Positions 1,554-46,519 of a stretch of DNA of 64,000 nt are shown here, piece by piece. This stretch comes from Bacilli bacterium (GTDB lineage: Bacteria; Bacillota_I; Bacilli_A; RF39; UBA660). Positions within the stretch are counted from its first letter, which is position 1. Every line of letters begins with the position of its first letter. A program made the position numbers and the translations under genes. The DNA is taken from contig JAQVKM010000002.1 in NCBI GenBank assembly GCA_028694645.1, positions 112,149-176,148 of the forward strand, given 5' to 3'. The notes under the pieces were generated by a model that saw only the letters and a program-made list of their open reading frames with translations, was not told where the DNA came from and did no database searches.

Positions 1554-2376
1554 TTTTACCTCCATCATAATCATCTAAAAAATGATAAGTTTGTTCTTCT
1601 TTGTGATATCCAATGATTGTTGATAAATTAACATTACACATACTTCTAAAAATATTAATATCGACATTTGGATTAATTGTTTTTAAATTTTTAATTAATT
1701 CTTTTATTTCTTTTCTTTTTGAATTGTTTTCAAATTGACTTTTCTCTGTAAAAGAACAAGCACAATTTAAAAATGATAAATCGTTAGATATTGTCCATGT
1801 TATTATATCTTTTTCTTTAATTAAATAAAGAGGTCTTATAAGTTCCATATTTTTAAAATTGGTACTATGCAATTTTGGCATCATTGTTTTGAATTCAGCT
1901 CCATACAACATACTCATTAAGGTTGTTTCAATAACATCATCAAAATGATGTCCTAAAGCTATTTTATTACAATTTAATTCTTGAGCTTTATTGTATAAAA
2001 AGCCTCTTCTCATTCTGGCACATAAATAACATGGACTGTCATCAACATTATTAACAACATTAAATATATCACTTTCAAATATATGTATTGGTATATTCAA
2101 TATATTAGCATTATCAATTATCTTTTTTTTATTTGCTTCATTATATCCTGGATCCATAACAATGAATTCTAAATCAAAGTTGATTTTTCCGTGTAATTTT
2201 AATTCCTGCATTAACTTAGCTAATAACATAGAATCTTTTCCACCAGATATGCAAACTGCTATCTTATCATTTTCATTTATCATTTTATATTCTTTAACAG
2301 CTTTTACAAATTTACTCCATATCTCTTTACGATATTTTTTTATAATGCTGCGCTCTATTTCTTCATATCTTTTCAT
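1537..2376 (-). CDS. ttcA: TtcA-family PP-loop ATPase (tRNA 2-thiocytidine synthetase-like)
   Basis: SGGKDS PP-loop plus PCYLCARMRRG, the CxxCxRxRRG hallmark of TtcA. Overlaps the downstream gene by 17 nt. Confidence 0.8.
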   Translation of the reverse strand: MKRYEEIERSIIKKYRKEIWSKFVKAVKEYKMINENDKIAVCISGGKDSMLLAKLMQELKLHGKINFDLEFIVMDPGYNEANKKKIIDNANILNIPIHIFESDIFNVVNNVDDSPCYLCARMRRGFLYNKAQELNCNKIALGHHFDDVIETTLMSMLYGAEFKTMMPKLHSTNFKNMELIRPLYLIKEKDIITWTISNDLSFLNCACSFTEKSQFENNSKRKEIKELIKNLKTINPNVDINIFRSMCNVNLSTIIGYHKEEQTYHFLDDYDGGKNENKD

Positions 2377-2404
2377 AACATCACACGTTCATTATATCAT
2401 GAAA

Positions 2405-2426
2405 AAACTACTTTTAAAAGTAGTTT
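2405..2426 (-). terminator. intrinsic terminator after the giant pilin-like gene
   Basis: Palindrome AAACTACTTTTAAAAGTAGTTT followed on the minus strand by a TTTC tail, about 55 nt downstream of the stop at 2483. Confidence 0.55.
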
Positions 2427-2482
2427 ATCAATTTCTATAGTGAATAATAAAATTTAAGTCATCAGTATTTCAATAAATTATT

Positions 2483-5400
2483 TTAGACAGATAATTCATA
2501 TATTCTGACACTTGTAGATCCATATCCACTTCTAATTTCTAAATATATTCGTATATATGCAGTATTTTCTGGTATTGTGTAAGCTTTACTTTCTCTAATA
2601 TATGTCGAACTTATTAATGTGTTACTTGAATTATAAGCATTCATAATTATTTTAGTATAATCACTAGAATATGCTCTTTGAGAGTATACATTCAAATTAA
2701 CATTTTTATTATACATTGAAGAATCAACTGCAACATAATAATTTTTTGTGTAACAAATATTTGTATCTGATCCTGAGCCACAAGTAGTGCCTACATATGT
2801 TAAAGTATTATTATCAAATGCCTCCATAGTTAAGGAATTTGCTCTATCTGTTGCGCTATAAGTGGATATTCTAGTCATTACATTATTCTTATCATACCCT
2901 CTTGCCAATAAATTTTGACCTGAAGCAAGTTTAAATGTTTGATTTAAGTAATTATGCCATGTTGTTCCACCATCTAAACTATATTGTTTAACAACAGAAG
3001 TTTTATGATAACTTAAAGATACATTTGTATACGCTGAATTCACCCCTGAATTTGTAATAGCAGGAAAGTATTGTGTTGCATTAAATATTGGATCATTATA
3101 AACAGATAATTCATATATTCTAACACTTGTTAATCCATAACCACTTCTAATTTCTAGATGAATTTGTAGATATGCAGTATTATCTGGTATTGTGTAGGTC
3201 CCGCTTTCTCTAATATATGCTGAGTTTATTAATGTATTAGATGAATTATAAGCCGAAATAATTATTTTAGTATAATCATTAGAATATGCTCTTTGGGAGT
3301 ATACATTCATATAAATTTTTTCATTATACATCGAAGAATCAACCGCAACATAGTAATCTTTTGAATAACAAATATTTGTATCTGATCCTGAGCCACAAGT
3401 AGCACCTACATATGTTGAATTATCTCCGTCATATGCCTCAGGAGTTAAAGAATTAGCTCTATCTATTGCATTATAAGTAGCTAATTTAGTCATTATATTA
3501 TTTTTATCATAACCTTTTGCCAGTAACTTTTTCCCTGAAGCAAGTTTAAATGACTGATTCATGTAATTATACCATGTTATTCCTTCATCCAAACTATACT
3601 GCTTTATAATAGATGTTTTATTATAATTTAAAGATACATTTGTATACGCTGAATTCATTCCTAAATTTGTAATAGTAGGAAAATATTGTGTTGCATTAAA
3701 TGTTGGTTCATTATAAACAGATAATTCATATATTCTAACGCTTGTAGCTCCATAACCACTTCTAATTTCTAGATGAATTTTTAAATATGTGGTATTCTCT
3801 GGTATTGTATAATTTCCAGTTTCTCTAATATATGTTGTGTTTAGTAATGCATTAGCTGAATTATAGGCATAAACAACTACTTTAGTATAATCGTTATAAT
3901 ATGCTCTTTGAGAATAGATATTCATATTAATTTTTTGGTTATACATTGAAGAATCAACATTGATAAAGTAATCTTTTGAATAACAAATATTTGTATCTGA
4001 TCCTGAACCACAAGTAGCACCTACATATGTTGAAGTATCACCATCATAACTTGCAATTGGTAAAGCATTTGCTGGTTGACTATTTGCTTTAGTTGACGAT
4101 ACAAACAGACCAGAATCATTTTTTACGCTTTTTGCATATATTGTATTCGTTTTAGAAGCATCAAATGCGCCAGTATAAATATTCCAATTTACTCCATCTA
4201 AACTATAATAATTAGTTATATCATTTCTTTGGTCATATTCAATAGTTGTTTTTCCATCAACACCTATACCATATATTGAAATAACCGCATTTCCATAATT
4301 TGATGTAATAACCGGTGCCTCAATTTTTGTTACATCAAGATTCAATATTTTCTTGCACGTTTTTGTTACATTACCAACAGCATCAGTTCCTTGTCCACAT
4401 ACAGTTACTGTTCCATCACTGTTTTCAAGTTTGTTAGAAAGAACATAACTTGATGATAAAGCAAAATCACTTGTATAATTTGTCCAAGGAATAGTATTAG
4501 CTCCTATTTTATATTGTCTTATAGTAGCATCCCCAAAATCCATTGATACTGTTACATTTGTTGTTAATTCTAATGGAACTGCTGTTATTACTACCTCTGG
4601 AGCATTTGAATCTATATTATCCACGGTTAGTGTATAAGTTTTAGTATTTCCGGCATAATCACTAGCATAAAAAGTGTAGGTTCCATTTTGTGTCAATTTA
4701 ACAGTACTGTTATTAGGTATGGAATTGCCATTTGTTTCAAAATAACTAGCACCTTTAAGCCCAATGTCATACATAACATTACTTAATTTTACGTCATCTG
4801 TTGCTGTTACCAAAACTGAAACTGATTTAGTTATAGTTTCTAAATCAGCTGTTAATTTAATAACTGGGGATTTCTCATCAATATTTTTAATAATATATTT
4901 TGCATCTAATGACCAAACTTCAGATGCATTTTGGCTTCTTGCATATATAATTGCATTATTCTTATCAACTAAGAATGGATTTTCATATTTTAACCAATCT
5001 GTTTTTGTGCCATCTGAATATGCTATCATATATTGTTTTTTTCTTAATGTTCCGGGATAGTCTATTGATATTTTAACTTCTTTACTTGGTTCTGTTGTAT
5101 CAGCAACAATTGTAGGTGAAGCTGGTTTTTCAGCTGCAAATCTCATGTATATATCATTTGCTATTTCTGAAGTTGCACTTGTTAAAATATAATAATCACC
5201 ATTAAATTCAATTTCTTTGCCCGTTTCATCTTTTATTTTAATTATTGAATTATTTAATATTTCTGATCCCTGTTCTACAAGTAAAATTCCATCATCCTTA
5301 TATAATTTCCATGTTCCATCTTCTTTATACTTATACTCCCAGGTTCCTCTGCTTGCATTTTCAGGATAATTTAATTTAATTATATAGTATTTTCCCATAT

Positions 5401-7510
5401 TAAGTATATAAACTGGTGGTTTAGCACTAATATTATCTATTTTTTTAGAAACAGTTTCTGACTGCTCTAATATATTTATATTTTGTGCGTACACAACTGT
5501 ATTTTCTGTTACAGTAAATGGTCCTGTATAAGTTGACCAATTACCATCCCCAATTTTATATTGACTTAAAAACGAATTTTTATCAAAAGAAATGCTTACA
5601 TCTGCACTATAAGTATTACTATTAACAGTTATAATTGGCTCAGATATTCCAGTAGTTAAATAATCAATTTTTTTATATGCACTTCCTCTTGCTATATCAT
5701 TTTGAGCATATGCATATACTGTACTATTTTCTTCTAAAACAAATGGTTCTGTATATTTTATCCAATCTCCAAACTGACCTATTTTATAATATTTTTCAGT
5801 AGCTCTTGAATCATATGTTATTGATACAGTTGTAGAGTCTACTAAAGAAACATCATCTTCTGGAGTAGCTAATATTGATACTGCTAGACTATATGGTTTA
5901 AAAACTGATGGGCTAGGAAGTCCATTTTTTGCATCCCCTATATTAGTAATTGCTAAAGAATCTTCTCTTGTCCCAAATTCATTTTTAGCTCTTGCATATA
6001 CCGTTAAATTGTTTTTTATCAAAAAAGTGCCTGTATAATTTTTATAATTTATTCCATCTAAACTATATTCTACCGTATCTGCCGTACTTTCATACGAAAT
6101 ACCTATTCTAACACTGTCAGTTAAAAAACTATTTTTAGATGGATATGGGTTTGCATCAATTTTAATGTATGGTGCTTTACCAGAATCAGAACTTCCCCCA
6201 CTACAGTCTTTTATATTTCTTATTTTATAAGTTTCTACCATTGATTGAGTTCCATCGACATCATCTTTGATATAATATGTAGAAATAGCTACATTTGATG
6301 TTATCGTAAATGGTTGTGTATATTTTTTATAACTTCCTGTTCCTATTTTATAATATATTACTCTTGCAGCTTGTGATGTTGTTAAATTTACTTTTACAGA
6401 ATCACAAGTCAGATTATTATTATCTATTGTCAAATATGGACCTATTGTTTCTGCACGATAAGGAAGTAAATTTGTTATTCTCTCTGGAGTTGATGACTGA
6501 CTAACAGGTGGATAGCTCATTTCTGTAATTGATCCACTATCTACTTTACATGAGTCGTTATCTTCACAGCTAGTTAATATTTTTTCATCATATGGTCTTA
6601 TATAAACACTATCATATACTGTTTTTGTTCTTTGTGTTAATATATTTCCTGTAGAATCATATACATTTTCTCTTATTCTTAATTTTGCTGATATAACAGT
6701 TGATTCTTCAACTATAAATTCATTGATATAATCAGTCCATCCATTATTACCTATCATATACTGTATAGATTCTAAATTAGCTGTACTATAGTTTAATTTT
6801 ACAGTTATTTTATCTCCTGTTTTATAAGTATAACTACTTGGTTCAATATCTACGTATGCTCCATTTCCTGATATAACAGTTGTTCCATCAGGAAGTTTAT
6901 ATTTTATAAATACATCTTCAATTCTATCTAGTGGTATTGTGATTGATCCTTCATAATCTTGCCAACTTTCTTGGCCCTCCGTTCTTATATCCCCTCTTGC
7001 ATCTAAACGCCATTTTTTTTCTATTGCATTATCTGGGTAATACAAAGTTAATTTTATCCAACCATCCCATATATTTCCAGATTCAATATTCCCAATTCCT
7101 ATTGAACAATCATCTCTTTCATATGTAGATGGAAGTGCCATAATTTTAGATGTATTATAATTTTTAATTATACATCTACGCAATGATTCACTCCATAATG
7201 CAAGAGTTGAATTGCCCGTTTTCTTAAGTATTACAATTCCACCATCTGGTTTTTTTCCTTTAAATGATAATTGATTCTTATAATCATCAAAAGAAACTGT
7301 TACATTATCTGTAACTGTATTATACAATAACTGATTCACATAATAATTTTCTGCAGCATCTAATATTCCATATCCTGTTTGAATGAAAGCATTTAATCGT
7401 GCCTTATTAATTATGCCAATTATAAAAGGAACAACTACTAATGAAAAAATGGTTATAACTACAATAACAGCTAAAAGTTCTAGTAAAGTAAATCCTTTTT
7501 TTCTTTTCAT
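2483..7510 (-). CDS. giant modular surface protein with type IV prepilin N-terminal cleavage/methylation leader
   Basis: MKRKKG-FTLLELLAVIVVITIF is a class III signal peptide with Gly-1, Phe+1 and Glu+5. It is followed by at least 10 Ig-like modules with a Y-K-I-G-x-G-x-W-x-x-Y-T-x-P-F type signature. Three C-terminal repeats carry CGSGSDTNICY. Confidence 0.85.
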   Translation of the reverse strand: MKRKKGFTLLELLAVIVVITIFSLVVVPFIIGIINKARLNAFIQTGYGILDAAENYYVNQLLYNTVTDNVTVSFDDYKNQLSFKGKKPDGGIVILKKTGNSTLALWSESLRRCIIKNYNTSKIMALPSTYERDDCSIGIGNIESGNIWDGWIKLTLYYPDNAIEKKWRLDARGDIRTEGQESWQDYEGSITIPLDRIEDVFIKYKLPDGTTVISGNGAYVDIEPSSYTYKTGDKITVKLNYSTANLESIQYMIGNNGWTDYINEFIVEESTVISAKLRIRENVYDSTGNILTQRTKTVYDSVYIRPYDEKILTSCEDNDSCKVDSGSITEMSYPPVSQSSTPERITNLLPYRAETIGPYLTIDNNNLTCDSVKVNLTTSQAARVIYYKIGTGSYKKYTQPFTITSNVAISTYYIKDDVDGTQSMVETYKIRNIKDCSGGSSDSGKAPYIKIDANPYPSKNSFLTDSVRIGISYESTADTVEYSLDGINYKNYTGTFLIKNNLTVYARAKNEFGTREDSLAITNIGDAKNGLPSPSVFKPYSLAVSILATPEDDVSLVDSTTVSITYDSRATEKYYKIGQFGDWIKYTEPFVLEENSTVYAYAQNDIARGSAYKKIDYLTTGISEPIITVNSNTYSADVSISFDKNSFLSQYKIGDGNWSTYTGPFTVTENTVVYAQNINILEQSETVSKKIDNISAKPPVYILNMGKYYIIKLNYPENASRGTWEYKYKEDGTWKLYKDDGILLVEQGSEILNNSIIKIKDETGKEIEFNGDYYILTSATSEIANDIYMRFAAEKPASPTIVADTTEPSKEVKISIDYPGTLRKKQYMIAYSDGTKTDWLKYENPFLVDKNNAIIYARSQNASEVWSLDAKYIIKNIDEKSPVIKLTADLETITKSVSVLVTATDDVKLSNVMYDIGLKGASYFETNGNSIPNNSTVKLTQNGTYTFYASDYAGNTKTYTLTVDNIDSNAPEVVITAVPLELTTNVTVSMDFGDATIRQYKIGANTIPWTNYTSDFALSSSYVLSNKLENSDGTVTVCGQGTDAVGNVTKTCKKILNLDVTKIEAPVITSNYGNAVISIYGIGVDGKTTIEYDQRNDITNYYSLDGVNWNIYTGAFDASKTNTIYAKSVKNDSGLFVSSTKANSQPANALPIASYDGDTSTYVGATCGSGSDTNICYSKDYFINVDSSMYNQKINMNIYSQRAYYNDYTKVVVYAYNSANALLNTTYIRETGNYTIPENTTYLKIHLEIRSGYGATSVRIYELSVYNEPTFNATQYFPTITNLGMNSAYTNVSLNYNKTSIIKQYSLDEGITWYNYMNQSFKLASGKKLLAKGYDKNNIMTKLATYNAIDRANSLTPEAYDGDNSTYVGATCGSGSDTNICYSKDYYVAVDSSMYNEKIYMNVYSQRAYSNDYTKIIISAYNSSNTLINSAYIRESGTYTIPDNTAYLQIHLEIRSGYGLTSVRIYELSVYNDPIFNATQYFPAITNSGVNSAYTNVSLSYHKTSVVKQYSLDGGTTWHNYLNQTFKLASGQNLLARGYDKNNVMTRISTYSATDRANSLTMEAFDNNTLTYVGTTCGSGSDTNICYTKNYYVAVDSSMYNKNVNLNVYSQRAYSSDYTKIIMNAYNSSNTLISSTYIRESKAYTIPENTAYIRIYLEIRSGYGSTSVRIYELSV
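2486..4075 (-). repeat. in-frame tandem repeat, period 615 nt (205 aa), about 2.6 units, inside the giant gene
   Basis: The motif CAAATATTTGTATCTGATCCTGA recurs starting at 2754, 3369 and 3984, exactly 615 nt apart. The protein units align over their full length (AYDGD.STYVGATCGSGSDTNICYSKDYY...RIYELSVYN...). Confidence 0.9.
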
Positions 7511-7511
7511 A

Positions 7512-7904
7512 CTAATAATCCTTTTCTATATAAAATTCTACATTTTTAATGTTACTGTAATCCCCAACTATACCAATAGATAAAGTTTGATAGTTTTCAT
7601 TATCAAGATTTTCTATTACTTGTTTTAATTTTTTCACTTCTTTTCCATTATCATCCTTCAATATTATCGAGATTATAAAATTTTTATTTTCTTCATTATT
7701 ATTATTAATTTTTGCTGTTAAAGTTGTTATGCTTCCTTCATAAATAAGTTTTATATCTGTGACAACTAAATCTTCTACTACTACATCATTTTTTGCTTTA
7801 TTTTCTTCTATTATTGTCTTATTAGTTAATTTTTTTTCACAACCACATCCCGTAATAATAAACAACGCTAAAAAAATCAATACAAATTTAATCATTTTTT
7901 TCAT
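7512..7904 (-). CDS. small lipoprotein, unknown function, coupled to the giant pilin-like gene
   Basis: MKKMIKFVLIFLALFIITGC lipobox. AAGGAG RBS before ATG 7904. Its stop codon lies 1 nt from the downstream start at 7510. Confidence 0.7.
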   Translation of the reverse strand: MKKMIKFVLIFLALFIITGCGCEKKLTNKTIIEENKAKNDVVVEDLVVTDIKLIYEGSITTLTAKINNNNEENKNFIISIILKDDNGKEVKKLKQVIENLDNENYQTLSIGIVGDYSNIKNVEFYIEKDY

Positions 7905-8184
7905 ATAAACTCCTTTTAATAACATACTATCGTATTACACTATTATATTATTAATTATAATTTATTTGTTGTTTAATGTCAATTAATCAAATATGTAATT
8001 ACAATAATGTTAATTTTCTTTACCTTAAAAATAATAACTTTAATTCTATAATGAATAATTTTAATATTATCTATTTTACTATTTAAAAAGGTAATACTAC
8101 TATTTTCCTATATAATTATAACAAAAAAAATAGACACAATTTTTAGGTGTCTACTTTTATTATAAATACACAATTTTGTATTAA

Positions 8185-8874
8185 CTATTTTTGTTTTATA
8201 TAATTTATATAATAATTTATTTTATCTGCCCAAGTTGTACTCTCGGCATATTTTGAATTAATAGCTTCTGGGGTTGTTAATCCTACTTTATAATAATTAT
8301 TATAAAGATTTTCTAAGTAACTATTAATTCCTTCTTCCAATGTATTAAAAGCTTTATAAGATCCCCCATTACATCCTGGACTTCCTTTGATTCCACCAAC
8401 ATTATTACAAGCATTAACTAAATTACTGCATTCCCATGTACATCCAGTTTCATGTAATACAATAGATACAGCTAAATAAGGATCTAATCCTAATTCAAGT
8501 GATTTACTTGCAAATAAATATCCTGTATTTGACAATGTTGAATTAAGTGATCTGTTTAGTTTGTCAGTTAATTCATTTAATGTCATGTTATCATAAACGA
8601 TTGGTTCTACAATTACTTCCTCAACCACTACCTCTTTTGGTTCTTCAGTTTGATTATTAGTTTCCTCAACCACTTTATCTTCTACTAAAGCAGTTATTGA
8701 AGAGACTATACTTTCTTTTATAAGAATATCATTTGTATATGATACACTTTCTAATGTTTTTGTATGATTTGTAGCATTAGCTTCTTTATTTATCAATACC
8801 GAAATTAATACCACAACAATAATTCCAATTATAACCTTTGCCGTGAGCGGCACGTCTATTTTCACCTTTTTCAC
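8185..8874 (-). CDS. membrane-anchored glucosaminidase-domain peptidoglycan hydrolase (LytD/FlgJ-type)
   Basis: N-terminal TM segment. C-terminal ...LAVSIVLHETGCTWECSNLVNACNNVGGIKG...YKAFNTLEEGINSYL fits the mannosyl-glycoprotein endo-beta-N-acetylglucosaminidase pattern. The start may be the second GTG at 8865, which has better GAGGTG spacing. Confidence 0.6.
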   Translation of the reverse strand: MKKVKIDVPLTAKVIIGIIVVVLISVLINKEANATNHTKTLESVSYTNDILIKESIVSSITALVEDKVVEETNNQTEEPKEVVVEEVIVEPIVYDNMTLNELTDKLNRSLNSTLSNTGYLFASKSLELGLDPYLAVSIVLHETGCTWECSNLVNACNNVGGIKGSPGCNGGSYKAFNTLEEGINSYLENLYNNYYKVGLTTPEAINSKYAESTTWADKINYYINYIKQK

Positions 8875-11510: not shown

Positions 11511-12599
11511 TTAACTATTTTTAGTACCTTGTTTTTTATTATAATCTTTTTTCTTTAAAACAAATAAATACACGATTTCATCTTTTATTACATAAAAGCT
11601 TGTTTCTTTTGTATCTTCAAATTCCATAATTGGTGAAGATAAATTAGCAGCTAAATTCAGTAATTCTTCAAAACTTATAATTGAAATAACTTTCAATTTT
11701 TTTGTATCAATCATACTATTTGTTAAAACTAAAATTTCACTATAATCACTTTTAATTTTATCTAATTTTTCCTCATAATTTATTAATTCTTTATATTCTT
11801 GTAATTTCTTAACAATTAATAAAGACATTACTAATGAGAATATAAAACCTACTACATAAATACCAATTATTGTAATTTTAATTTCTGACAATTTTTTATT
11901 TTCTAAAAGTAAATAACCATTATCTTCTATATTTTCACTTTGATTAACAAAGAAAACTTTGTCTTCTACATCTATTTTAGCTGATAAAACATATTTTTTT
12001 GATAAAGAATATGTTCCATCATCACCATATATAGTTATTGGCATTTCTATTTTAATATAAGAAATTGTTGGTATTTGAAAATATTCAACAAAATCCATAA
12101 TTTCAGTAATATATTTTCTAACATCAATTGAAAATGTTTCAGTTAATGATAATGTTGAATTATTAGAACTAACAATACCTGTATCTTCTTTAATAACATA
12201 TTCTTTATTCCATAAAACAGGATTATTTTCACTGGTAGGGTCTTCATTATAAAGTCCATATAAAGTGGCTTTTATTCCATATTGATAATTAATCGGCAAC
12301 GATATTTCTGATGTTAAATCATATTTAAAAGTAAAATCAATATTTTTAGTAATACTTGTTATATATGATCTATCAGAAGATAATAAAGTTTCTTTTATAA
12401 ATTTATTATCATCAACACCAACATTATAAGATATTGAACTAACACTTACATATTTTTTTTCATTATTTTGTTTATTTTCAATGAAAAAATTTAATAAACC
12501 ATAACAATTAAATATCAAAAACAATAAAACTATAACAAGTAAAATAATTAATCTGTTTTTATTTAACAAAGTTTTTTTTGTTACTTTTTTTGTTGCCAT
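11511..12599 (-). CDS. two-TM membrane protein, DUF5305-like accessory protein of SipW loci
   Basis: N-terminal TM, about 200-aa extracytoplasmic domain, second TM (IIGIYVVGFIFSLVMSLLIV), about 100-aa cytoplasmic tail. Its start abuts the sipW-like stop. The family name is from recall. Confidence 0.45.
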   Translation of the reverse strand: MATKKVTKKTLLNKNRLIILLVIVLLFLIFNCYGLLNFFIENKQNNEKKYVSVSSISYNVGVDDNKFIKETLLSSDRSYITSITKNIDFTFKYDLTSEISLPINYQYGIKATLYGLYNEDPTSENNPVLWNKEYVIKEDTGIVSSNNSTLSLTETFSIDVRKYITEIMDFVEYFQIPTISYIKIEMPITIYGDDGTYSLSKKYVLSAKIDVEDKVFFVNQSENIEDNGYLLLENKKLSEIKITIIGIYVVGFIFSLVMSLLIVKKLQEYKELINYEEKLDKIKSDYSEILVLTNSMIDTKKLKVISIISFEELLNLAANLSSPIMEFEDTKETSFYVIKDEIVYLFVLKKKDYNKKQGTKNS

Positions 12600-12600
12600 G

Positions 12601-13578
12601 TTAATTCCCCGTTTCTACTTCAACATTATCATCATCTGATAAAAATTCTTTAATTAATATAGTTGGATACCCCATCTTAGGAATAATTCCTATCAATTTA
12701 CCTAAAACTTGATTTTGCTTAACACTAAGATTATCTCTTGAACTATTATTATCACCTTTAGTTATTAATATTTTCTCATATTTGCTAGTTGTTTGTATAT
12801 CAATTACTCTATGTATTACTTTTATCTTATTTAAATTATATACTATTACATCTCCAATTTCAATATCATTATAATTTATTTTACTATATATAACAACATC
12901 ACCTCTATTAATTGCAGGAGCCATACTTCCTGTTAATATTACAACAGGTTTAACTGGATAGAAACCAGATGTAAAAAAGGTTATTAATGTAATAAATAAA
13001 ATAAATATTGTAAATTTTGTTTTTTCAAATCCAGAAAATCTTTCTTTTATATTAAATTTAATATAACTAAAATAATCTTTTTCTATTTTAAAATAAACAA
13101 ATAATGGTACTATTGAACTTATTATACATATAATAGCATAATTATTAGTTGGAAATACTGGAGTTAAAAGATATATAATAATAAATGGTAATTTATATAA
13201 TAAAGAAGAAATTATACCTTCTCTATAAATAAGATAACTTAAAAATAAATTCATTATCAGTGATGGAAAAAAATATTTTAACAAAAAAATGACCATCACC
13301 GAACTACTATTAAATGCTCCTGAAAAATTTTCAATACCGATATTTACAATCGTAAATAATATTGTTATTAATACTATATTAGTATATCTTTTGTTTTCTT
13401 GTGAAGATTTTATATAACTTGATCTTATAATTTCTTCTGTTATAGCTATAACTATAAGTGATAGTCCATTTAATAAAACACCAGCAAATGAGTGGTCTAA
13501 AGGACTATTTGAATAACCTATTATTAATCCTACTAAATAATACATAATAATGTATATTAAAGATCCAATTAATGCCAT
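12601..13578 (-). CDS. sipW: SipW-type (ER/archaeal-type) signal peptidase I fused to an N-terminal polytopic membrane domain
   Basis: The C-terminal 130 aa carry TGSMAPAINRGD (Ser), IHRV (His) and KGDNN boxes. The preceding 190 aa or so are multi-pass membrane. Confidence 0.75.
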   Translation of the reverse strand: MALIGSLIYIIMYYLVGLIIGYSNSPLDHSFAGVLLNGLSLIVIAITEEIIRSSYIKSSQENKRYTNIVLITILFTIVNIGIENFSGAFNSSSVMVIFLLKYFFPSLIMNLFLSYLIYREGIISSLLYKLPFIIIYLLTPVFPTNNYAIICIISSIVPLFVYFKIEKDYFSYIKFNIKERFSGFEKTKFTIFILFITLITFFTSGFYPVKPVVILTGSMAPAINRGDVVIYSKINYNDIEIGDVIVYNLNKIKVIHRVIDIQTTSKYEKILITKGDNNSSRDNLSVKQNQVLGKLIGIIPKMGYPTILIKEFLSDDDNVEVETGN

Positions 13579-13593
13579 TTGTCTTAATGCTTT

Positions 13594-13788
13594 TTAATCT
13601 GGGTTATTTATTTCATATTTTTTTCTTATAAATACAAAAGCGATAGCAGCTAAAGAAAAAAAGATAAGGGGTTTAAATAAATATTGATAAGGATTTTTCC
13701 CTACAGCTTCAATTAAAATTTTTGGAATAAACAAAAATATTATAAACAATGATATTATTGATATCCATTCAAATAATTTTCTACTCAT
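13594..13788 (-). CDS. small two-TM membrane protein
   Basis: Two hydrophobic helices. It overlaps the upstream stop by 1 nt and lies 15 nt upstream of the sipW-like gene. Confidence 0.5.
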   Translation of the reverse strand: MSRKLFEWISIISLFIIFLFIPKILIEAVGKNPYQYLFKPLIFFSLAAIAFVFIRKKYEINNPD

Positions 13789-14369
13789 TAATTCACTATA
13801 ATAATATAATAAAAGTATTGTGTAACTCCATTAGCTACATACTTTAGTCGAACTTGCATTTTAATAACAGTTGTCAAACTAGTTCTTAATCTAGCTGTTA
13901 CAGTCAATTTACCAGTTGAATAAGCAGCTATAGAAGTAGCACTTAAAGTTGAAGCTAAATTACTAACATTAGATCCACCAGTAACTGTTGTATTTGTTCT
14001 TGTTCCACTTGTTAAAGTATATGGATATGGATTTTTAAAATTAATAACAAAAGTACAATTAACATAACTGGTATATCTTCTTGTTCGTGTAAAAGTTAAT
14101 GTTAAATAATTGTCTTCTAATACCTCACTAGTTAGCGAAGCAAAAGTAGTAGGAAAAGTTCCACTTGTATAAGTAGCTCCTCCTGTACCACTAGCTGTTA
14201 AATTAAGATTTAAAGCATTACCACTAACTACATATTTAGCTACAGCTGTTCCATTAATACTTAAAGATTCACTAAAAATACTATAACCTACACTAGTAGT
14301 TATTATTATTAATAATAAAGATATTATCCAATAGCTTTTTTTATATTTCTTTCTTCTTATTTTTTTCAT
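13788..14369 (-). CDS. secreted TasA/camelysin-like protein with SipW-cognate-type signal peptide (divergent paralog C)
   Basis: Basic N-terminus, TM, then GYSIFSESLSINGTAVA. Thr/Ser/Asn-rich beta-type body. Confidence 0.5.
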   Translation of the reverse strand: MKKIRRKKYKKSYWIISLLLIIITTSVGYSIFSESLSINGTAVAKYVVSGNALNLNLTASGTGGATYTSGTFPTTFASLTSEVLEDNYLTLTFTRTRRYTSYVNCTFVINFKNPYPYTLTSGTRTNTTVTGGSNVSNLASTLSATSIAAYSTGKLTVTARLRTSLTTVIKMQVRLKYVANGVTQYFYYIIIVN

Positions 14370-14390
14370 AAATAACCCCTTAACTCAATT

Positions 14391-14415
14391 AAAGCCACAT
14401 TTAAAATGCGGCTTT
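14391..14415 (-). promoter_or_regulatory. intercistronic stem-loop between paralog B and paralog C
   Basis: AAAGCCACA-tttaaaa-TGCGGCTTT (9-bp arms with one mismatch). There is no strong T-tail. Confidence 0.4.
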
Positions 14416-14425
14416 AAATTAATTA

Positions 14426-14929
14426 CTAAACTGTTTGTTGATAATTCAATGTTGCTGTAAATGTTACATTTTTATTAGCCACTGTAGAACTTGTAGCCCA
14501 TGCTACTGTTATATCAAATGTATAAGTTTCATTTGGTGCTAAAACAACACCTGTTGGCCATGTTGGATATGTTACTGTTACATCTGAATCGTTGTTTCCA
14601 GTAACATTAACACTTAATAAATTAGCATCGATATTACCAGTATTTTTAACTGTTACACTAATAACAGCATTTGATCCTGGTTTAGCTAAATCAGGTACTG
14701 ATATAGTTAATCCATTTTTATCTGTTGATATTGTTGAAGTTGGTGTACATCCTGTTGCAGATGTAATTGATGTAGCTGAAAATTGTACATCAAATATACC
14801 TGTTGTTACAGCTGTACCATTAATATTTAATGCTTCACTAAATATTGCATAACCTATTGTCATTGTAAATAATATTGCACATAATGATATTATTACATAA
14901 ACTCTACTATTTTGTTTTTTCTTTTTCAT
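14426..14929 (-). CDS. secreted TasA/camelysin-like protein with SipW-cognate-type signal peptide (paralog B)
   Basis: ...TMTIGYAIFSEALNINGTAVTTG..., closely similar to paralog A along its whole length. Confidence 0.55.
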   Translation of the reverse strand: MKKKKQNSRVYVIISLCAILFTMTIGYAIFSEALNINGTAVTTGIFDVQFSATSITSATGCTPTSTISTDKNGLTISVPDLAKPGSNAVISVTVKNTGNIDANLLSVNVTGNNDSDVTVTYPTWPTGVVLAPNETYTFDITVAWATSSTVANKNVTFTATLNYQQTV

Positions 14930-14943
14930 TTAAACTCCTCTTT

Positions 14944-15453
14944 CTATATTGACTGTTCATAATTTAATTTTGCACTAAAAGTTATACTTTTATTACTACT
15001 TGTTGAATTTGTATTCCAAAACACAGAAATACTAAATGTATAAGTGTCTCCTGGTTGTAATAATATACCTGTTGGCCATTCAGGATATGTAATGTTAATA
15101 TCTGAATCATTATTTCCAGTAACAACTACATTTAATAAATTAGCTGTTACATTTCCAGTATTTTTAACAATTACACTTATTATTGCTCCAGATCCTGGTG
15201 TTTTTAAATCAGGTACCGATATAGTAATTCCATTCTTATCTGTTGATATTGTCGAAGTTGGTGTGCAACCATTTGATGAAACAATTGAACTAGCTAGAAA
15301 TTCAACATTGAAGTTCCCGCTTGTTACGGCTGTACCATTAATGTTCAATGATTCACTAAATATAGCATACCCAGCTGCTAATGAAAATATAGCAACAAAT
15401 AATATTATAATAAAATATACTTTATTATTTTGTTTTCTAATTTTTTGTTTCAT
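14944..15453 (-). CDS. secreted TasA/camelysin-like protein with SipW-cognate-type signal peptide (paralog A)
   Basis: ...LAAGYAIFSESLNINGTAVTSG..., first gene of the cluster, 14 nt upstream of paralog B. Confidence 0.55.
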   Translation of the reverse strand: MKQKIRKQNNKVYFIIILFVAIFSLAAGYAIFSESLNINGTAVTSGNFNVEFLASSIVSSNGCTPTSTISTDKNGITISVPDLKTPGSGAIISVIVKNTGNVTANLLNVVVTGNNDSDINITYPEWPTGILLQPGDTYTFSISVFWNTNSTSSNKSITFSAKLNYEQSI

Positions 15454-19421: not shown

Positions 19422-20516
19422 TTAATCTAAATAAATTAATTTTTTTTCTTTTTTTAATATACAAAAAAGAAATATTATAATTGGTAAAATAACTTGAATA
19501 GGTATTGCATAAATACCAAATATTGGTGCAAAATCAAATAAATCTACAACATTATCAAATAAAAAAGGGCATATCCCAAGCATTAATAAAGATACTGGAA
19601 AAATAGTTTTTGTATAATCTTTATTTTTGGTTAAATAAGCTACTCCTTTAGATAAAGATATAATAAATATAGTTATTTTAACGATTCCTGCTAATACAAA
19701 ATTAATTGTAATTAAACCCTCTACTCTTGTTAAAAACTCCCCTAATTGTAATATTCTTGTTGCTTGATAAGAGGCAAAAAAAGAATCTTTTAATAAAGGT
19801 ATTCCTATAACAGTAATATTTCTAATTAATATTAAATCTAATATAATACCTGTGAAAATAATTCCTTTTAAATATGTTTTTGATGGATTTTTAAAATCAA
19901 ATAAATCAGCAATTCCAAGCATTACTATTAATTCTGAAAAAGGTAACATGAAGACTTTAAAAGAAGACTTAAAAATTGAATTGATGGAATGGTTTAAAAT
20001 TGGTTTAATATTATCAAATTTAAATATAGAAAATGATAATATCAACGTTATTGAAATTGTTACCAATAATATTGCTAAAACAATATTGCCAAATATTCCA
20101 AGAGTTTTAATTTTACTTTTAGATAAATAAACTGATATTAGGATTAAACTCATCATTATAGGTAATAATGGTGTTTCAGATAATGTTGTTATCTCCACAT
20201 ATTCAGAAAAATTTCTCAAAACAATTGATCCCAAATATAAAATATGAATTAAAAACAAAGATATCAATATTTTAGCAGTCAATTTACCAAACAATATATC
20301 AATAATTTGATATATATTTTTTTGTGGGAATTTATTAATAATATATCCAAATATTAAAACTAGTGGAATATTAAAAACAAAGGATAGAATTAAGGATATC
20401 CATGCATCTTGGCCAATTTCAGAATTAATATCTATTCCTATTACAACACTACTTCCAAATAAAAAAAGGATTATTAAAACAATAATTTGTTTTTCTGTTA
20501 ATAACTGTTTATTCAT
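19422..20516 (-). CDS. spore germinant receptor B subunit (GerAB/GerKB family permease)
   Basis: About 10-TM APC-like protein with the family-typical N-terminus. It is the last gene of a gerA-type operon. Confidence 0.8.
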   Translation of the reverse strand: MNKQLLTEKQIIVLIILFLFGSSVVIGIDINSEIGQDAWISLILSFVFNIPLVLIFGYIINKFPQKNIYQIIDILFGKLTAKILISLFLIHILYLGSIVLRNFSEYVEITTLSETPLLPIMMSLILISVYLSKSKIKTLGIFGNIVLAILLVTISITLILSFSIFKFDNIKPILNHSINSIFKSSFKVFMLPFSELIVMLGIADLFDFKNPSKTYLKGIIFTGIILDLILIRNITVIGIPLLKDSFFASYQATRILQLGEFLTRVEGLITINFVLAGIVKITIFIISLSKGVAYLTKNKDYTKTIFPVSLLMLGICPFLFDNVVDLFDFAPIFGIYAIPIQVILPIIIFLFCILKKEKKLIYLD

Positions 20517-20528
20517 GATTATTCCTTT

Positions 20529-20729
20529 CTATTTATTAATTATTTTTCTTAATACATGAGATATTATAGGTATCTTGAAATTAAATACATAAGATATTAA
20601 TAATAAAAAAGAAGATAATGTTAATAAAATATATATTATATTTTGTTTTTTACTTTGTTTTATTTTGATTTTGTTGTAATCAAAAATAATAATTAAAGCA
20701 AACATCACCAAAACAACTAAAAATAACAT
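20529..20729 (-). CDS. small two-TM membrane protein inside the ger operon (possible receptor D-type subunit)
   Basis: 66 aa with two hydrophobic helices, located between the C and B subunit genes. Confidence 0.4.
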   Translation of the reverse strand: MLFLVVLVMFALIIIFDYNKIKIKQSKKQNIIYILLTLSSFLLLISYVFNFKIPIISHVLRKIINK

Positions 20730-20741
20730 ATAATACCTCCT

Positions 20742-21884
20742 TTATCTAGTAAAACCTGTATTGAATATTTCAACCTTTGAATCAACTTCAACATCTATAT
20801 TTTTATACAATTTATCAAATTTATTATTTAATTTTTTATATTGTTTTGGATTATTTTTATATAATACTTCTTTTAATCCTAATATATCCGTATTAAAATC
20901 ATATTGAATTTTTTTAATTACCTTTTCAATTTGTTTTTTTATATATTGAGATGCTTCTTTTTCCAATTTAGTTAAATCCTTATCATTAATTTTGTTATTC
21001 TGGTCTTTATATTCACCCAATGTAACTTCTGTATTTGTTATTAACTTAATTTTCAAATTCTTTTGATCAAAAGAAACATATTTTATTTTAGATGAATTAC
21101 TTTTAATTTCTAAAGATATATTAAAAGAATTTTTATCCGCAGTTTTTATTTTAGTATTAATAGTAATTATCCCACCTTTTAATTTGTTTTTAGCTAATAA
21201 ATAATATTTAGATTCTTCAGAAGATAAATAACCAATTAATTTATCATTTTTAAAAACGGCTATCCCATTAGTTTCGCATACATATTGATCATTGTTTTTC
21301 ACTAAATGAATGAGAGGTAAAGTTAATGACATATTTTTATTTGATAATATATTATAAATTTGATAAATAGGAACTGCTTCTGTAGAACTAGTTACTTTTT
21401 CATCTTTTTCAACGATTGTCTTAATATCATTTGATACAATGGTACTCGTTAAACCATTTACTTTTAGAAGTTCAAGAGCGCTATTTTCTTTTGAAATAAC
21501 TATTTGTAGTGTTTCTCTAACTTCAGGATCTCTTGTAAACCAATTTATTATTGAATTTATTCCATCTTCTTTAGCTATTTGATTAGAAACAATAATAATT
21601 CTTGCATCTGAAAAATACATTTTATTTGATACTCTTTTTTTAGCATTTCTAACAGCATCAAATATAGTTTTTCCTTTTGACTGAACTATTTGAGAGACTA
21701 TTGGATATCCTTGTGGTGTTGATTGTAAATCATAAATCTCATAACTAAGTAAATATTCATTATTCACTTTGTCTATAGCAACACCAGCGACTACAGTCAT
21801 TTCATTTAATCCAATATAATTCCAACAACCAGTTGATAAGAAACAAATAATGAATGTAATAATTAGTAATGTTTTTTTACGCAT
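20742..21884 (-). CDS. spore germinant receptor C subunit lipoprotein (Ger(x)C family)
   Basis: Lipobox FLSTGC followed by WNYIGLNEMTVVAGVAIDK. Start set at ATG 21884 after GGTGA. Overlaps the A subunit stop. Confidence 0.8.
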   Translation of the reverse strand: MRKKTLLIITFIICFLSTGCWNYIGLNEMTVVAGVAIDKVNNEYLLSYEIYDLQSTPQGYPIVSQIVQSKGKTIFDAVRNAKKRVSNKMYFSDARIIIVSNQIAKEDGINSIINWFTRDPEVRETLQIVISKENSALELLKVNGLTSTIVSNDIKTIVEKDEKVTSSTEAVPIYQIYNILSNKNMSLTLPLIHLVKNNDQYVCETNGIAVFKNDKLIGYLSSEESKYYLLAKNKLKGGIITINTKIKTADKNSFNISLEIKSNSSKIKYVSFDQKNLKIKLITNTEVTLGEYKDQNNKINDKDLTKLEKEASQYIKKQIEKVIKKIQYDFNTDILGLKEVLYKNNPKQYKKLNNKFDKLYKNIDVEVDSKVEIFNTGFTR

Positions 21885-23436
21885 TTTCATCACCAACATT
21901 ACTATTATTTCTTATCAAATTTTTTTGATTAGCTATATCATAATCTCTCTTTCTTAATTTTGGCCATGGCATTCTTATAATATTATCATTAAATTTAGTT
22001 TTCCATCCCTTCTCTAAAAAATCAACCTGATTTACATTAAATGATTTTAAATTAATAATATGAATAAGCCAATAACAACTAGATATTAAGAAGCCGAATA
22101 ACCCAAATATCGAAGATAATAATAAATTAGTAAATCTAACTATTATATTAGCGGCATTCATTTTAGGAATCAGTAAACTTGTAATTCCTGTTATTCCAAC
22201 AATAATTATCATAGGAGCAGCAACTAATTTAGCTTCGACAGCAGCTTGACCTATTACCAATGCTCCCACTATACTCAAAGCTTGTCCAACTCCAGTTGGC
22301 ATTCTAACCCCAGTTTCTCTTAGTATTTCAAAAACTAGTAACATTACAAAAGCTTCTAAAGAAGCAGGAAGAGGAACACTTTGTCTTTCCATAGTAATAT
22401 TTAAAAAAAGTGATGTTGGTATCATTTCATGATGAAAAGCTACAATAGCTATATAAAGAGCAGGAATAGTACAAGTTATGATAAATCCTAAGGCTCTAAT
22501 AATTCTTGAGAATGACGTATAATAAAATCCTAAATAGTAGTCCTCACTACTTTGAAAATTTTCTACAAATAAATATGGCAATGTTAAAGCTACCGGTGTC
22601 CCATCAATTAATAAAGCAATTCTTCCTTCTAACATTTTTCCAACTACTACGTCAGGTCTTTCTGTTGTACCTATAGTTCTAAATGGCGATAATTTATTAT
22701 CTTTAATTAATTCAATAATATAGTTACTATCTAAAATACCATCTATATTTATCTTATCTAATCTCTCATTTAAATCTTGTAATATTTCTTTTTTAACAAT
22801 ACTTTTCATATAGCATATAGCTATTTTAGTATTAGATCTTTTTCCTAATGTTTTATATATTATCTTTAAGTCATTTGTTCTTAATTTGCGATGCAGCATT
22901 GATATATTAAATAATATTGATTCTGTGAAGCCTTCTCTTGGCCCCAATAATATTTTTTCATTTTCTGGTTCACTTACACTTCTTAAATTAAATTTTGGAG
23001 TATTTAAAAGTAAAGCTTCATTATATCCATCAATGATTAATAAAGTATCCCCATATGTTATTTTCTCTATAATTTCTTTAACAGAATTTGTTTTTTTCAT
23101 ACTACCAATTTGAATAATTTCATTTTGAACAGTATCCAAAAAATATTTTTTTGTTCGCTTATTTCTAGATAAAACAAGTGGTTTAATAATACTTTCATTA
23201 ATAACTTCATTGTTTACTAGACCTTCACAATAAATAAGCACATATTTTAATTTTGAATCATTTTCATTAATTATTTTTCTAGTAGTATATGTATCAACAT
23301 TTTCAAATAATTTTGATATTAAATCAACATTATAATCTAATTCTTCAGTCAAAATATATTCAGCTAAATTATTATTTAAATTATTCAGTTTATTTTCAAA
23401 CAATAATTCTTCATTTTTCTTTTTTGAAAATAGCAT
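21877..23436 (-). CDS. spore germinant receptor A subunit (GerA family)
   Basis: Soluble N-terminal domain plus C-terminal TM block (...PASLEAFVMLLVFEILRETGVRMP...) typical of GerAA/GerKA. Confidence 0.85.
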   Translation of the reverse strand: MLFSKKKNEELLFENKLNNLNNNLAEYILTEELDYNVDLISKLFENVDTYTTRKIINENDSKLKYVLIYCEGLVNNEVINESIIKPLVLSRNKRTKKYFLDTVQNEIIQIGSMKKTNSVKEIIEKITYGDTLLIIDGYNEALLLNTPKFNLRSVSEPENEKILLGPREGFTESILFNISMLHRKLRTNDLKIIYKTLGKRSNTKIAICYMKSIVKKEILQDLNERLDKINIDGILDSNYIIELIKDNKLSPFRTIGTTERPDVVVGKMLEGRIALLIDGTPVALTLPYLFVENFQSSEDYYLGFYYTSFSRIIRALGFIITCTIPALYIAIVAFHHEMIPTSLFLNITMERQSVPLPASLEAFVMLLVFEILRETGVRMPTGVGQALSIVGALVIGQAAVEAKLVAAPMIIIVGITGITSLLIPKMNAANIIVRFTNLLLSSIFGLFGFLISSCYWLIHIINLKSFNVNQVDFLEKGWKTKFNDNIIRMPWPKLRKRDYDIANQKNLIRNNSNVGDENA

Positions 23437-23555
23437 ATTTTTTCTCCTTTATGTACCATTTATTTTTAAATATTATTTACAAATATTGATTTTTTATACA
23501 TCATGATACATAGTATTAAATTATAATTTATGGAAATCTTATAATTGGTGATAAT

Positions 23556-24890
23556 GTGATAGAAAAATATAAAATCAAAAAAATAAATGATGAAGATATT
23601 TTGTTTATATATCTTGATTACAATTATGAATTTAGTAAAATAGGAAATGATAATAAATCTCAAAAAATACTAGATCAAATTAAAAATACTTTACACAATA
23701 TTAAATTTAACGGTCAAAAAATTGTTGTAATGGTCGGTGCTATAGCTATTGCAGTATTATTATTTAATGGAAATGATTTTAAAGGAAGTATTGTTGAAGA
23801 AAAAAATACTACACATTTAACATCAGGAATATTAACATCAATTGATTATAGTGATAACTTAATTATTGATACAAGTAAAGAAAACTACATAATTGAGACG
23901 CAAAATATAAATATACCTGTTGATAATTTAAATCAAATAGAGATTAAAGAAAAAAATGATAATTATTCTGTGGATAATTCTGTTTCAACTAATTATAGTA
24001 ATATTAATGAAGTAAAAAATGAAAATAATTCTGTGGATAACTCTATTAAAACATCTGAATCTTCAAACATAGAAAATATACCTGTTGAAACAAGCAAAGA
24101 GACTTATGTAACAATTTACAGGAGCAATGGAACAATATTGCAAATTGCTTTAGAAGAATACTTAATTGGTGTTGTTGCTGCTGAAATGCCAGCTTCTTTC
24201 AATATGGAAGCCTTAAAAGCTCAAGCTGTTGTGGCCAGAACTTATGCATTAAAAAGAGTAAATGAAAATTTAGTTTTAACTGATACTGTTTCAACACAAG
24301 AATATAAGGATATAAGTCAAATGCAAACAATGTGGCAAAATGATTTTCAAAAATATTTTGATAAAATTAAAACAGCAGTTGAACTTACAAAAGGAAAATA
24401 TATAACATATAATAATAGTTATATTGATGCCGTTTATCATTCAACAAGCAATGGTTACACTGAAGATCCTATGTATGTCTGGGGATATCAAATTCCATAT
24501 TTAAAATCTGTAGATAGTCACTGGGATACAACAGCTTCATCATACTTAAGAACTGAAACAAAAGAATATAATTTAATTTTAAGTATTTTAGGAATAAACA
24601 TAGATATTAATACTGAAATTGAAATATTAAATAAAAATGAAACAAATAGAATAACATCTATAAAAATAGGAGATAAAACTTATAATGGTGTTGAATTTAG
24701 AAATCTACTTGGACTTAGATCAACAGATTTCGATGTTAGTATTGAAAATCAAAATCTTGTTTTCACAACAAGAGGATATGGTCATGGTGTTGGTATGAGT
24801 CAATATGGTGCTAATGGAATGGCCAAAGAAGGGTACAACTATGAACAAATATTAAATCATTATTATCAAAATATTACAATTAATGGCTAG
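23556..24890 (+). CDS. spoIID: SpoIID/LytB-domain stage II sporulation protein D-like lytic transglycosylase
   Basis: ...ALKAQAVVARTYAL..., ...GYGHGVGMSQYGANGMA... GTG start after GGTGA. Confidence 0.85.
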   Translation: MIEKYKIKKINDEDILFIYLDYNYEFSKIGNDNKSQKILDQIKNTLHNIKFNGQKIVVMVGAIAIAVLLFNGNDFKGSIVEEKNTTHLTSGILTSIDYSDNLIIDTSKENYIIETQNINIPVDNLNQIEIKEKNDNYSVDNSVSTNYSNINEVKNENNSVDNSIKTSESSNIENIPVETSKETYVTIYRSNGTILQIALEEYLIGVVAAEMPASFNMEALKAQAVVARTYALKRVNENLVLTDTVSTQEYKDISQMQTMWQNDFQKYFDKIKTAVELTKGKYITYNNSYIDAVYHSTSNGYTEDPMYVWGYQIPYLKSVDSHWDTTASSYLRTETKEYNLILSILGINIDINTEIEILNKNETNRITSIKIGDKTYNGVEFRNLLGLRSTDFDVSIENQNLVFTTRGYGHGVGMSQYGANGMAKEGYNYEQILNHYYQNITING

Positions 24891-39801: not shown

Positions 39802-39847
39802 AAGTATTCCTCTTTCTTTCGAAATATAATAACATAATATAATAAAA

Positions 39848-39870
39848 ATAACTAGCATAATACTAGTTAT
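39848..39870 (-). terminator. terminator after the 484-aa gene
   Basis: ATAACTAG-cataata-CTAGTTAT followed on the minus strand by TTTT. Confidence 0.45.
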
Positions 39871-39891
39871 TTTAATATTTTTATCAATAAA

Positions 39892-41346: not shown

Positions 41347-41418
41347 CCTGCACCTCGCTAAGTCATATATATTATCACATTATAAAAATTTGTCAAATTG
41401 TTTTTTAATAAAAATTAG

Positions 41419-42237: not shown

Positions 42238-42292
42238 GTTTTTATTTGAAGTATTTAAATTATTTGTTTTACTCCTAAATCACCTACTACAT

Positions 42293-42751: not shown

Positions 42752-42942
42752 AAATCCTCCTTTTATTATAATTATACATTAACATATTAATTATATCACA
42801 TTTTATTAGTCAACAAAAAAAATTAATTTGCCCATTTTGATAGCTATATAAAGATTTATATAGTTATTTATTTAATTTTAATTATTTGATATAATATAAT
42901 TAATATACATTAATATCTTTAAAATAAATTTAAGGAGGATTT

Positions 42943-44286: not shown

Positions 44287-44306
44287 TACTTTTTTTATTT
44301 AAATTA

Positions 44307-46463: not shown

Positions 46464-46519
46464 ACCCAAATCAACTCCATATTTATTAGCTATTATAATA
46501 TCATATAAAAATCAAAAAA

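Follow-up and report, generated by a model that had tools for sequence, protein, structure and literature searches.

The window analyzed here, a stretch of 64,000 nucleotides of contig JAQVKM010000002.1 from Bacilli bacterium (assembly GCA_028694645.1), carries an intact open reading frame (ORF) of 1675 amino acids (aa) on its minus strand (2483..7510), with the ATG at 7510, the stop codon at 2483-2485 and a ribosome binding site, AAGGA, 5' of the ATG. A first reading of the letters by a model (the original prediction) had given these coordinates correctly, and the strand is newly added. The protein, whose opening sequence is MKRKKGFTLLELLAVIVVITIFSLVVVPFIIG, is predicted to consist of an N-terminal type IV pilin module, a long stalk of immunoglobulin (Ig)-like modules and a distal end with jelly-roll modules, and on balance we favor its being an extreme, tip-displayed modular pilin adhesin. 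Its parts are as follows, with independent E-values (i-E) from searches with hidden Markov models (HMMs) and predicted local distance difference test scores (pLDDT) from AlphaFold2 (AF2) models where these apply.

2483..7510, minus strand: complete giant modular pilin ORF, 1675 aa plus stop; 64 homologs, E-values down to 0
7493..7510, minus strand: leader peptide MKRKKG, aa 1-6; predicted prepilin-peptidase site after Gly6; PF07963 and TIGR02532 above their cut-offs
7073..7492, minus strand: predicted pilin module, aa 7-146; hydrophobic alpha1-N with Glu5 and Pro22, long alpha1, beta-sheet head, conserved Cys113/Cys135
4073..7072, minus strand: stalk, aa 147-1146; ten Y-K-I-G..W..Y-type Ig-like modules plus a Big-like one
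4571..4888, minus strand: divergent beta module within the stalk, aa 875-980, 'TATDDVKLS...TYTFYASDYAGN'; weak Big_7/Big_9 matches only; strongly conserved in homologs
3707..4072, minus strand: jelly-roll module A1, aa 1147-1268; HMM i-E 1e-27
3458..3706, minus strand: Ig-like module, aa 1269-1351; HMM i-E 3e-31
3092..3457, minus strand: jelly-roll module A2, aa 1352-1473; AF2 pLDDT 92.7, eight strands; Foldseek matches to GH85 and GH2 accessory beta-sandwiches, Epf, Asp3 and CBMs at E-values of 2e-6 to 1e-3
2843..3091, minus strand: Ig-like module, aa 1474-1556; HMM i-E 7e-33; within the high-confidence A2-B2 model
2486..2842, minus strand: jelly-roll module A3, aa 1557-1675, forming the distal end; HMM i-E 3e-24; one copy of a 615-nt DNA repeat

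The N-terminus reads MKRKKG followed by FTLLELLAVIVVITIFSLVVVPFIIG, so that the predicted cleavage site lies within the motif MKRKKG-FTLLE. Its description as a textbook prepilin leader was borne out by both motif models, PF07963 (N_methyl) scoring 26.4 bits against a gathering cut-off of 21.2 and TIGR02532 scoring 23.6 bits against 16.3, and the GspG, PpdD and ComG pilin models gave weaker matches at the same place. Numbered as in mature pilins, with Gly6 as Gly-1, Phe7 as Phe1, Glu11 as Glu5 and Pro28 as Pro22, the protein has Phe1, Thr2, Leu3, Glu5 and Pro22 all in place. We thus find the basic leader ending in Gly, Phe1, Glu5 and a motif HMM above its cut-off (IPR012902), together with the hydrophobic alpha1-N, the alpha1 helix of ~50 residues and Pro22 of a type IV pilin. 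The segment from aa ~4 to 43 is the sole hydrophobic segment of the whole protein. Neither an LPXTG motif nor a C-terminal hydrophobic segment or anchor was found in the 1675-aa sequence, and a sortase-anchored (LPXTG) adhesin was rejected for this reason.

The resemblance to pilins extends beyond the leader. Against the PDB, a profile of the head built from five close homologs found meaningful matches solely among type IV pilins (Streptococcus sanguinis PilE1, MshA, geopilin, Thermus PilA5, GspG and gonococcal pilin), with Phe7 aligned to mature residue 1 of the solved structures. Searching 1.84 billion cluster representatives with the head HMM returned 42,791 matches at E<=1e-3, 6,085 at E<=1e-10 and 100 at E<=1e-30. 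The best 146 of these covered profile positions 1 to ~138, always at the N-terminus of the protein, in proteins of 124-1690 aa (median 369), and 137 of the 146 contained G-xxxx-E. Twenty-three of the best 146 were shorter than 200 aa and represent stand-alone pilins; those of 124-180 aa aligned across the full head profile, again from position 1 to ~138. In close homologs, whose modules share just 38-61% identity, Gly6, Phe7, Thr8, Leu9, Glu11, Pro28 and the Cys113/Cys135 pair were invariant. Since a simple transmembrane (TM) anchor needs no Gly-1, Glu5, Pro22 or Cys pair, this invariance counts for the pilin reading. The AF2 model of the head, which was built from a shallow alignment, placed a helix at residues 9-61 (53 residues) ahead of five strands, the order of elements in pilins. 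Judged by these sequence comparisons, residues 1-146 are a true pilin module and not a leader alone. The original prediction had recognized a pilin-like head, and its estimate of about 130 aa for that head has to be raised to ~146 aa.

A word-indexed search with the head alone gave one match, P0065 (L076 2372-2803), a 143-aa ORF that shares 61% identity with the window's pilin module and has a gene for the partner lipoprotein (described below) at its 5' side. This ORF stops 34 nt from the end of a 2.8-kb contig with a coverage of ~2.9x, and it may be either a genuine pilin that stands alone or part of a giant gene that a sequencing error has cut short.

Beyond the head, the stalk is built of Ig-like modules. 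The expectation of at least ten modules of ~85 aa agreed with the 10 copies of the pattern Y-x-[IL]-x(2-10)-[WY]-x-x-Y in the giant protein, and an HMM made from the Ig-like module raised the number to 12, ten of them in the stalk (envelopes 140-197, 212-293, 353-432, 450-522, 556-610, 622-692, 704-768, 793-873, 981-1042 and 1066-1142) and two near the C-terminus. The assignment of these modules to the chitobiase/Fn3-associated type did not stand as a Pfam call for this protein, in which CHB_HEX_C_1 (18.0 bits vs 22), CHB_HEX_C (15.2 vs 23.6) and Fn3_assoc (13.8 vs 23) all stayed below their cut-offs. It holds in a broader form, as an OmpL47-type domain (NCBIfam) passed at 50.6 bits against 40 and PF03174, PF13287 and PF13290 are present in homologs of the giant protein. 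By these scores the stalk modules are related to the chitobiase/Fn3-associated group and make up a divergent sub-type of it.

The three C-terminal jelly-roll-like modules seen at the outset were located at aa 1147-1268, 1352-1473 and 1557-1675, with an Ig-like module between each pair. The distal part (aa 1147-1675) therefore has the form A-B-A-B-A, where A is the ~120-aa jelly-roll module and B the Ig-like module, and the DNA that encodes it has a 615-nt period in three copies of 81-86% identity. An AF2 model of A2-B2 (aa 1352-1556; alignment of 28 diverse units) consisted of two beta-sandwiches, with a mean pLDDT of 92.7 and a predicted TM-score (pTM) of 0.78. Foldseek matched this model, at E-values from 2e-6 to ~6e-3 across matches, to the accessory beta-sandwiches of the glycoside hydrolase (GH) family 85 enzymes Endo-D and Endo-A and of GH2 enzymes; further matches included the Epf adhesin, Asp3, carbohydrate-binding modules (CBMs), meprin (7uab, 7uae, 4gwm) and the collagen-binding domains of ColG. 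Many phage tail proteins were matched as well. The two-domain query kept the TM-scores low (0.25-0.35), and the likeness of the A module to CBMs and adhesins, as modeled, is one of fold and not of family. Identity as a phage tail protein was considered and rejected, the similarity being only that of generic beta-sandwiches.

Six variants of the giant protein in one gut lineage (P0004, 5, 6, 9, 12 and 18; L001 and L004) were identical at 98.3-100% over the 1,145 aa of pilin module and stalk. The same six carried four types of first jelly-roll module, only 23-38% identical between types, and differed in the number of cassettes as well. Sequence comparison thus points to exchange of distal jelly-roll cassettes at the strain level within this lineage, and the replacement of jelly-rolls on a body at least 98% identical supports a binding role for the distal end.

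Homologs of the giant protein formed at least 64 clusters of 931-2845 aa, and 73 loci were obtained from species-representative genomes, nearly all of them of uncultured gut or environmental Bacillota. Database entries of the homologs are unnamed or 'hypothetical', and some metagenome-assembled genomes (MAGs) contain several giant paralogs each. The conserved body begins at a WDGWI motif (aa 147), that is, immediately after the pilin module, and the N-termini in front of it fall into several types. Among the 66 giant genes surveyed (those of the fetched loci and that of the window) these were distributed as follows.

Canonical KKGFTL[ILV]E prepilin N-terminus: 12 genes
Pilin-like 'KG(I/V)(S/T)L...' N-terminus without Glu5 or Pro22: 23 genes
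PASTA plus TM segment, or charged segment plus TM segment: 21 genes
Unreadable N-terminus: 10 genes

The G-FxxxE leader, a check on the original prediction, is kept by close homologs and lacking in distant ones. The longest family member with the canonical leader was P0056, of 2090 aa. The largest member seen, from a rumen Clostridiales MAG (L066 8933-21562), is 4,210 aa long and has its copy of this body on a TM anchor.

The gene immediately 5' of the giant ORF encodes a small lipoprotein, which we refer to as the partner.

7512..7904, minus strand: partner gene, 130-aa lipoprotein with lipobox IITG/C and a small beta-rich domain; stop 1 nt before the pilin ATG
7954..7982, minus strand: promoter-like TTGACA-17-TATAAT, 12/12 matches, 5' of the partner gene

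By this arrangement the two genes form a translationally coupled operon. The TTGACA-17-TATAAT site is its probable promoter; it is a consensus match only, of a kind no commoner in the region than in shuffled sequence. Homologs of the partner adjoined 10 of the 12 giant genes with the canonical leader, 5 of the 23 with the degenerate leader and none of the 21 with a TM anchor, and at some loci (L012, L025) the cassette of partner and giant gene occurred in tandem. The sole family match of the partner lipoprotein, DUF1425, was below threshold, and the PDB gave no meaningful match. Nor was the partner homologous to the gene upstream of P0212, a stand-alone pilin of the same family and the only such locus examined, where the upstream gene is another pilin.

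A motif scan of the 64-kb window, a reading of all its ORFs and tblastn searches with a relative's PilB, PilC and PilD found no homolog of PilB, PilC, PilD, PilT or ComG, as the original prediction had stated; a second prepilin motif was likewise not found in the window. The machinery was looked for in two relatives that carry an orthologous giant gene, and both proved to have it on the contig of that gene. GCA_050259235.1 has an ortholog of 1,891 aa with the leader of the window protein, again preceded by the partner gene, and this ortholog lies 9 kb from genes for PilC (679 aa), PilD and PilB (505 aa), in a pil cluster that includes two more prepilin-type genes. On the ENA contig k141_86435, the giant gene P0023 lies 132 kb from the same PilC-PilD-PilB-pilin-pilin cluster. 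In the relatives this cluster has a conserved place between dnaG-sigA-trmK-yqfQ and mutS, and its products score as GspE/PilB and GspF/PilC, not as ComGA/ComGB, on which ground a Com-pilus subunit was rejected. Prepilin peptidases of the relatives' type were abundant in 'Bacilli bacterium' MAGs.

One of the two further prepilin-type genes of the GCA_050259235.1 cluster encodes a modular pilin of 511 aa (L077 12916-14451), next to PilB, whose glycine-rich domain is of the ALK/LTK-like type. This glycine-rich domain (PF12810) also occurs in TM-anchored giant paralogs. Another modular pilin of the relatives, a 771-aa N_methyl protein, was found 2 kb from the giant gene at a further locus (L002 6011-8326).

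The surroundings of the operon in the window are those of a very AT-rich genome. The GC content of the window is 19-30%, with 27-30% in the region of the giant gene (window 2001-8000) against 19-24% in the flanking genes, a difference that could come from the amino-acid composition of the protein (rich in Thr, Ser, Gly and Tyr) or from a foreign origin. By their translations, gerB-, gerC- and gerA-like genes adjoin a SpoIID-like gene at 19422-24890, and these genes together with the AT-rich window indicate a very AT-rich spore-forming Firmicute as the host; a GC content of just ~22% for the genome is unusually low for a spore-former. Just 5' of the partner-pilin operon (8185-8874, minus strand) is a gene for a membrane-anchored protein with a glucosaminidase domain (PF01832, 34.6 bits vs 30.2), likely a peptidoglycan hydrolase, which was not conserved beside the giant genes in relatives. 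A pair of paralogous membrane-anchored thioredoxin-like proteins (831-1574 and 53661-54368) has the motif 'YFG(F/Y)PECPWCRN' in common, and a third Cys-x-x-Cys protein is encoded at 54404-54970; one member of the pair is encoded two genes downstream from the giant pilin gene, the modules of whose product hold paired cysteines. At 11511-15453 (minus strand), three small secreted proteins that resemble one another at the N-terminus ('...GYAIFSE(A/S)LNINGTAV'), one of which matches CARDB above the cut-off, stand beside a DUF5305 protein and a membrane protein of 325 aa with a signal-peptidase S26 domain at its end, an arrangement that resembles a TasA/SipW-type fiber or matrix operon. A coupling protein of the VirD4/TraG type and a MobL relaxase lie at the end of the window (60685-63895), and a long run of ORFs upstream of them, at 39196-53271, has no obvious identity, with no Pfam match for the two that were scanned (39892-41346 and 49657-51054). 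Together these probably belong to an integrated conjugative or mobilizable element.

By sequence the giant protein is a modular pilin in the defined sense, a pilin module fused to modules that are not specific to pilus biology, since modules of its Ig-like, Big-like and jelly-roll types are found as well in glycosidases, in phage tail proteins and in paralogs that are not pilins. The original prediction left two readings side by side, a tip-adhesin pilin or a giant adhesin that borrows the leader for export or anchoring, and the evidence falls within these two and leans to the former, because the 146-aa head is homologous to stand-alone pilins, Gly-1, Phe1, Glu5 and Pro22 are invariant and relatives encode PilB, PilC and PilD. 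Several observations weigh against a tip-displayed pilin adhesin. PilB, PilC and PilD are absent from the 64-kb window, no major pilin gene was identified, and in relatives the giant genes are tied to pil loci only loosely (9 kb and 132 kb). The same body stands on PASTA plus TM or plain TM anchors in 21 of 66 genes, so it works without any pilin module, and the jelly-roll modules matched no curated family by sequence in the Pfam scan. The question whether the head models as a pilin received a divided answer: homology says yes, with full-length matches to stand-alone pilins, and Foldseek with the low-confidence head model (pLDDT 63) gave no match at E<1.

The same absence of pilus genes from the window, and the location of the relatives' giant genes among housekeeping genes, would suit a module that served as a membrane anchor only, holding at the cytoplasmic membrane, as in the TM-anchored paralogs, an N-in/C-out, cleaved or uncleaved, wall-spanning adhesin that never enters a filament. 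The body mounted on PASTA plus TM or charged plus TM segments in 21 of the 66 genes, and on pilin-like N-termini without Glu5 and Pro22 in 23, fits such a use, for which the sugar-binding proteins of the Sulfolobus bindosome offer a parallel, as archaeal surface proteins other than classical pilins with class III signal peptides (PMC3047682). This is the main alternative explanation, to which we give appreciable though clearly minor weight, because a plain anchor has no need of the Gly-1, Glu5, Pro22, globular head and Cys pair that are conserved here, the head is the full pilin module common to stand-alone pilins, PilB, PilC and PilD are present in both relatives checked, and the partner lipoprotein tracks the pilin-type N-termini and is never beside the TM-anchored paralogs. 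We consider it improbable that the protein is a structural component of the envelope or wall (S-layer-like, a spacer or matrix) with its beta modules as mere scaffold. Modules without a curated family, fold matches to generic beta-sandwiches at TM-scores of 0.25-0.35 and the many paralogs of some environmental MAGs would suit that role; strain-level swapping of the distal jelly-rolls alone, on a body at least 98% identical, is instead what is expected of receptor-binding ends, and the best fold matches were sugar-binding accessory domains, adhesins and phage tail proteins. That a long ORF merely happens to begin with a prepilin-like motif, by chance or as an artifact of annotation, has a negligible probability. 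The N_methyl motif is short and only ~5 bits above its cut-off, yet the ORF is unbroken and has been conserved across more than 60 homologs, its full 146-aa head matches thousands of pilins, and a ribosome binding site and translational coupling to a conserved upstream gene precede it; a chance motif is excluded by the leader, invariant in close homologs, and by the matching of the full head to pilins.

As a tip-displayed modular pilin adhesin, the precursor would be inserted by the Sec pathway with its N-terminus in and C-terminus out, and a prepilin peptidase (PilD) encoded elsewhere in the genome would cut after Gly6 and methylate Phe1. A machine of the PilB/PilC type, as in the relatives, would then pull the pilin module from the membrane and polymerize it into a type IV filament, at the tip or close to it, and the filament would display a stalk tens of nanometers long whose distal jelly-roll modules may bind a glycan or another surface ligand. 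Exchange of the distal modules between strains would change the ligand specificity. In a monoderm, without the outer-membrane secretin, no channel would limit the size of the subunit, so that a bulky one would be allowed, and this may explain why such proteins occur in Bacillota. Tip-capping subunits lack Glu5 (PMC10191384), and the Glu5-less paralogs of the giant family therefore fit a capping position in the filament; the window protein, having kept Glu5, would sit beneath another subunit or would simply be less derived. We also entertain, as a speculative and rather unlikely extension, that the pilin-mounted giants represent a distinct monoderm use of type IV machinery, in which a minimal set of PilB, PilC and PilD uses a short filament to launch or extend one giant adhesin across the wall, aided by the dedicated partner lipoprotein, and swapped distal cassettes retarget the device. 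Such a single-adhesin launching device would differ from a conventional pilus with a tip adhesin.

Modular pilins as such have been described. The class was defined from S. sanguinis PilB, which has a vWA module, and PilC, which has a lectin module (Raynaud et al. 2021, PMC8179133; PMC9934059), and InterPro holds more than 1,200 such proteins in 264 architectures (PMC8179133). The window protein resembles PilB and PilC in its class III signal peptide, its small N-terminal pilin module with non-pilus modules C-terminal to it and its monoderm host, as well as in its predicted tip location and adhesive role, including carbohydrate binding. It differs from them in being several-fold larger, with 12 Ig-like and three jelly-roll modules in place of one grafted module, in lying outside a pil locus, in retaining Glu5 and in having paralogs in which TM anchors replace the pilin module. 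The earlier remark on size was right, as the most extreme case of the survey is an 860-residue pilin from Candidatus Falkowbacteria with 12 IPR013211 motifs (PMC8179133). That protein, too, has many repeat modules in tandem behind its N_methyl motif; the window protein is about twice as long, with another type of repeat and a host of another phylum. The large minor pilin CofB (type IVb pili) and the type II secretion protein GspK carry a pilin module with extra beta domains at the filament tip (PMC8179133). Like the tip-capping subunits, the giant family has degenerate 'KGISLI' paralogs without Glu5, and unlike CofB and GspK, which are diderm proteins, much smaller and encoded in the machinery operon, the window protein keeps Glu5. 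The sugar-binding proteins of the Sulfolobus bindosome show a prepilin-type signal on large and functionally unrelated surface proteins, as does this family, and differ in being archaeal, in their dedicated Bas assembly system and in the lack of a homologous pilin head (PMC3047682).

Giant repeat adhesins of Gram-positive bacteria, for example Ebh and SasG, are anchored by an LPXTG motif or a TM segment. As in those proteins, a long rod of Ig-like repeats would project the binding end away from the cell; unlike them, the window protein has no LPXTG or C-terminal anchor, and the N-terminal pilin module is its sole anchor. No sequence similarity to adhesins of the Ebh/SasG type was detected in the PDB and Pfam searches, and literature searches for giant pilins yielded no account of proteins of this kind. 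What distinguishes this case within the known class is its scale, its rod of many modules, its place outside a pil locus, its dedicated partner gene and the swapping of pilin and TM anchors.

Modular pilins have been proposed as a general route by which type IV filaments gain functions, and the documented cases are small and bimodular. This protein raises the size and complexity of the load that a pilin module may bear, to ~1,700 aa here and to 2,090 aa among relatives that share its leader. This brings with it mechanical questions of how the assembly machine handles a giant subunit, how the subunit passes through the Gram-positive wall and where it sits in the filament. The family amounts to a natural swap experiment with built-in controls, in which one and the same body of ~1,500 aa is carried by a plain TM segment, by a pilin-like anchor lacking Glu5 or by a complete pilin module. 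Its carriers are poorly known, uncultured Bacillota of gut and environmental habitats, where such proteins are likely major determinants of attachment.

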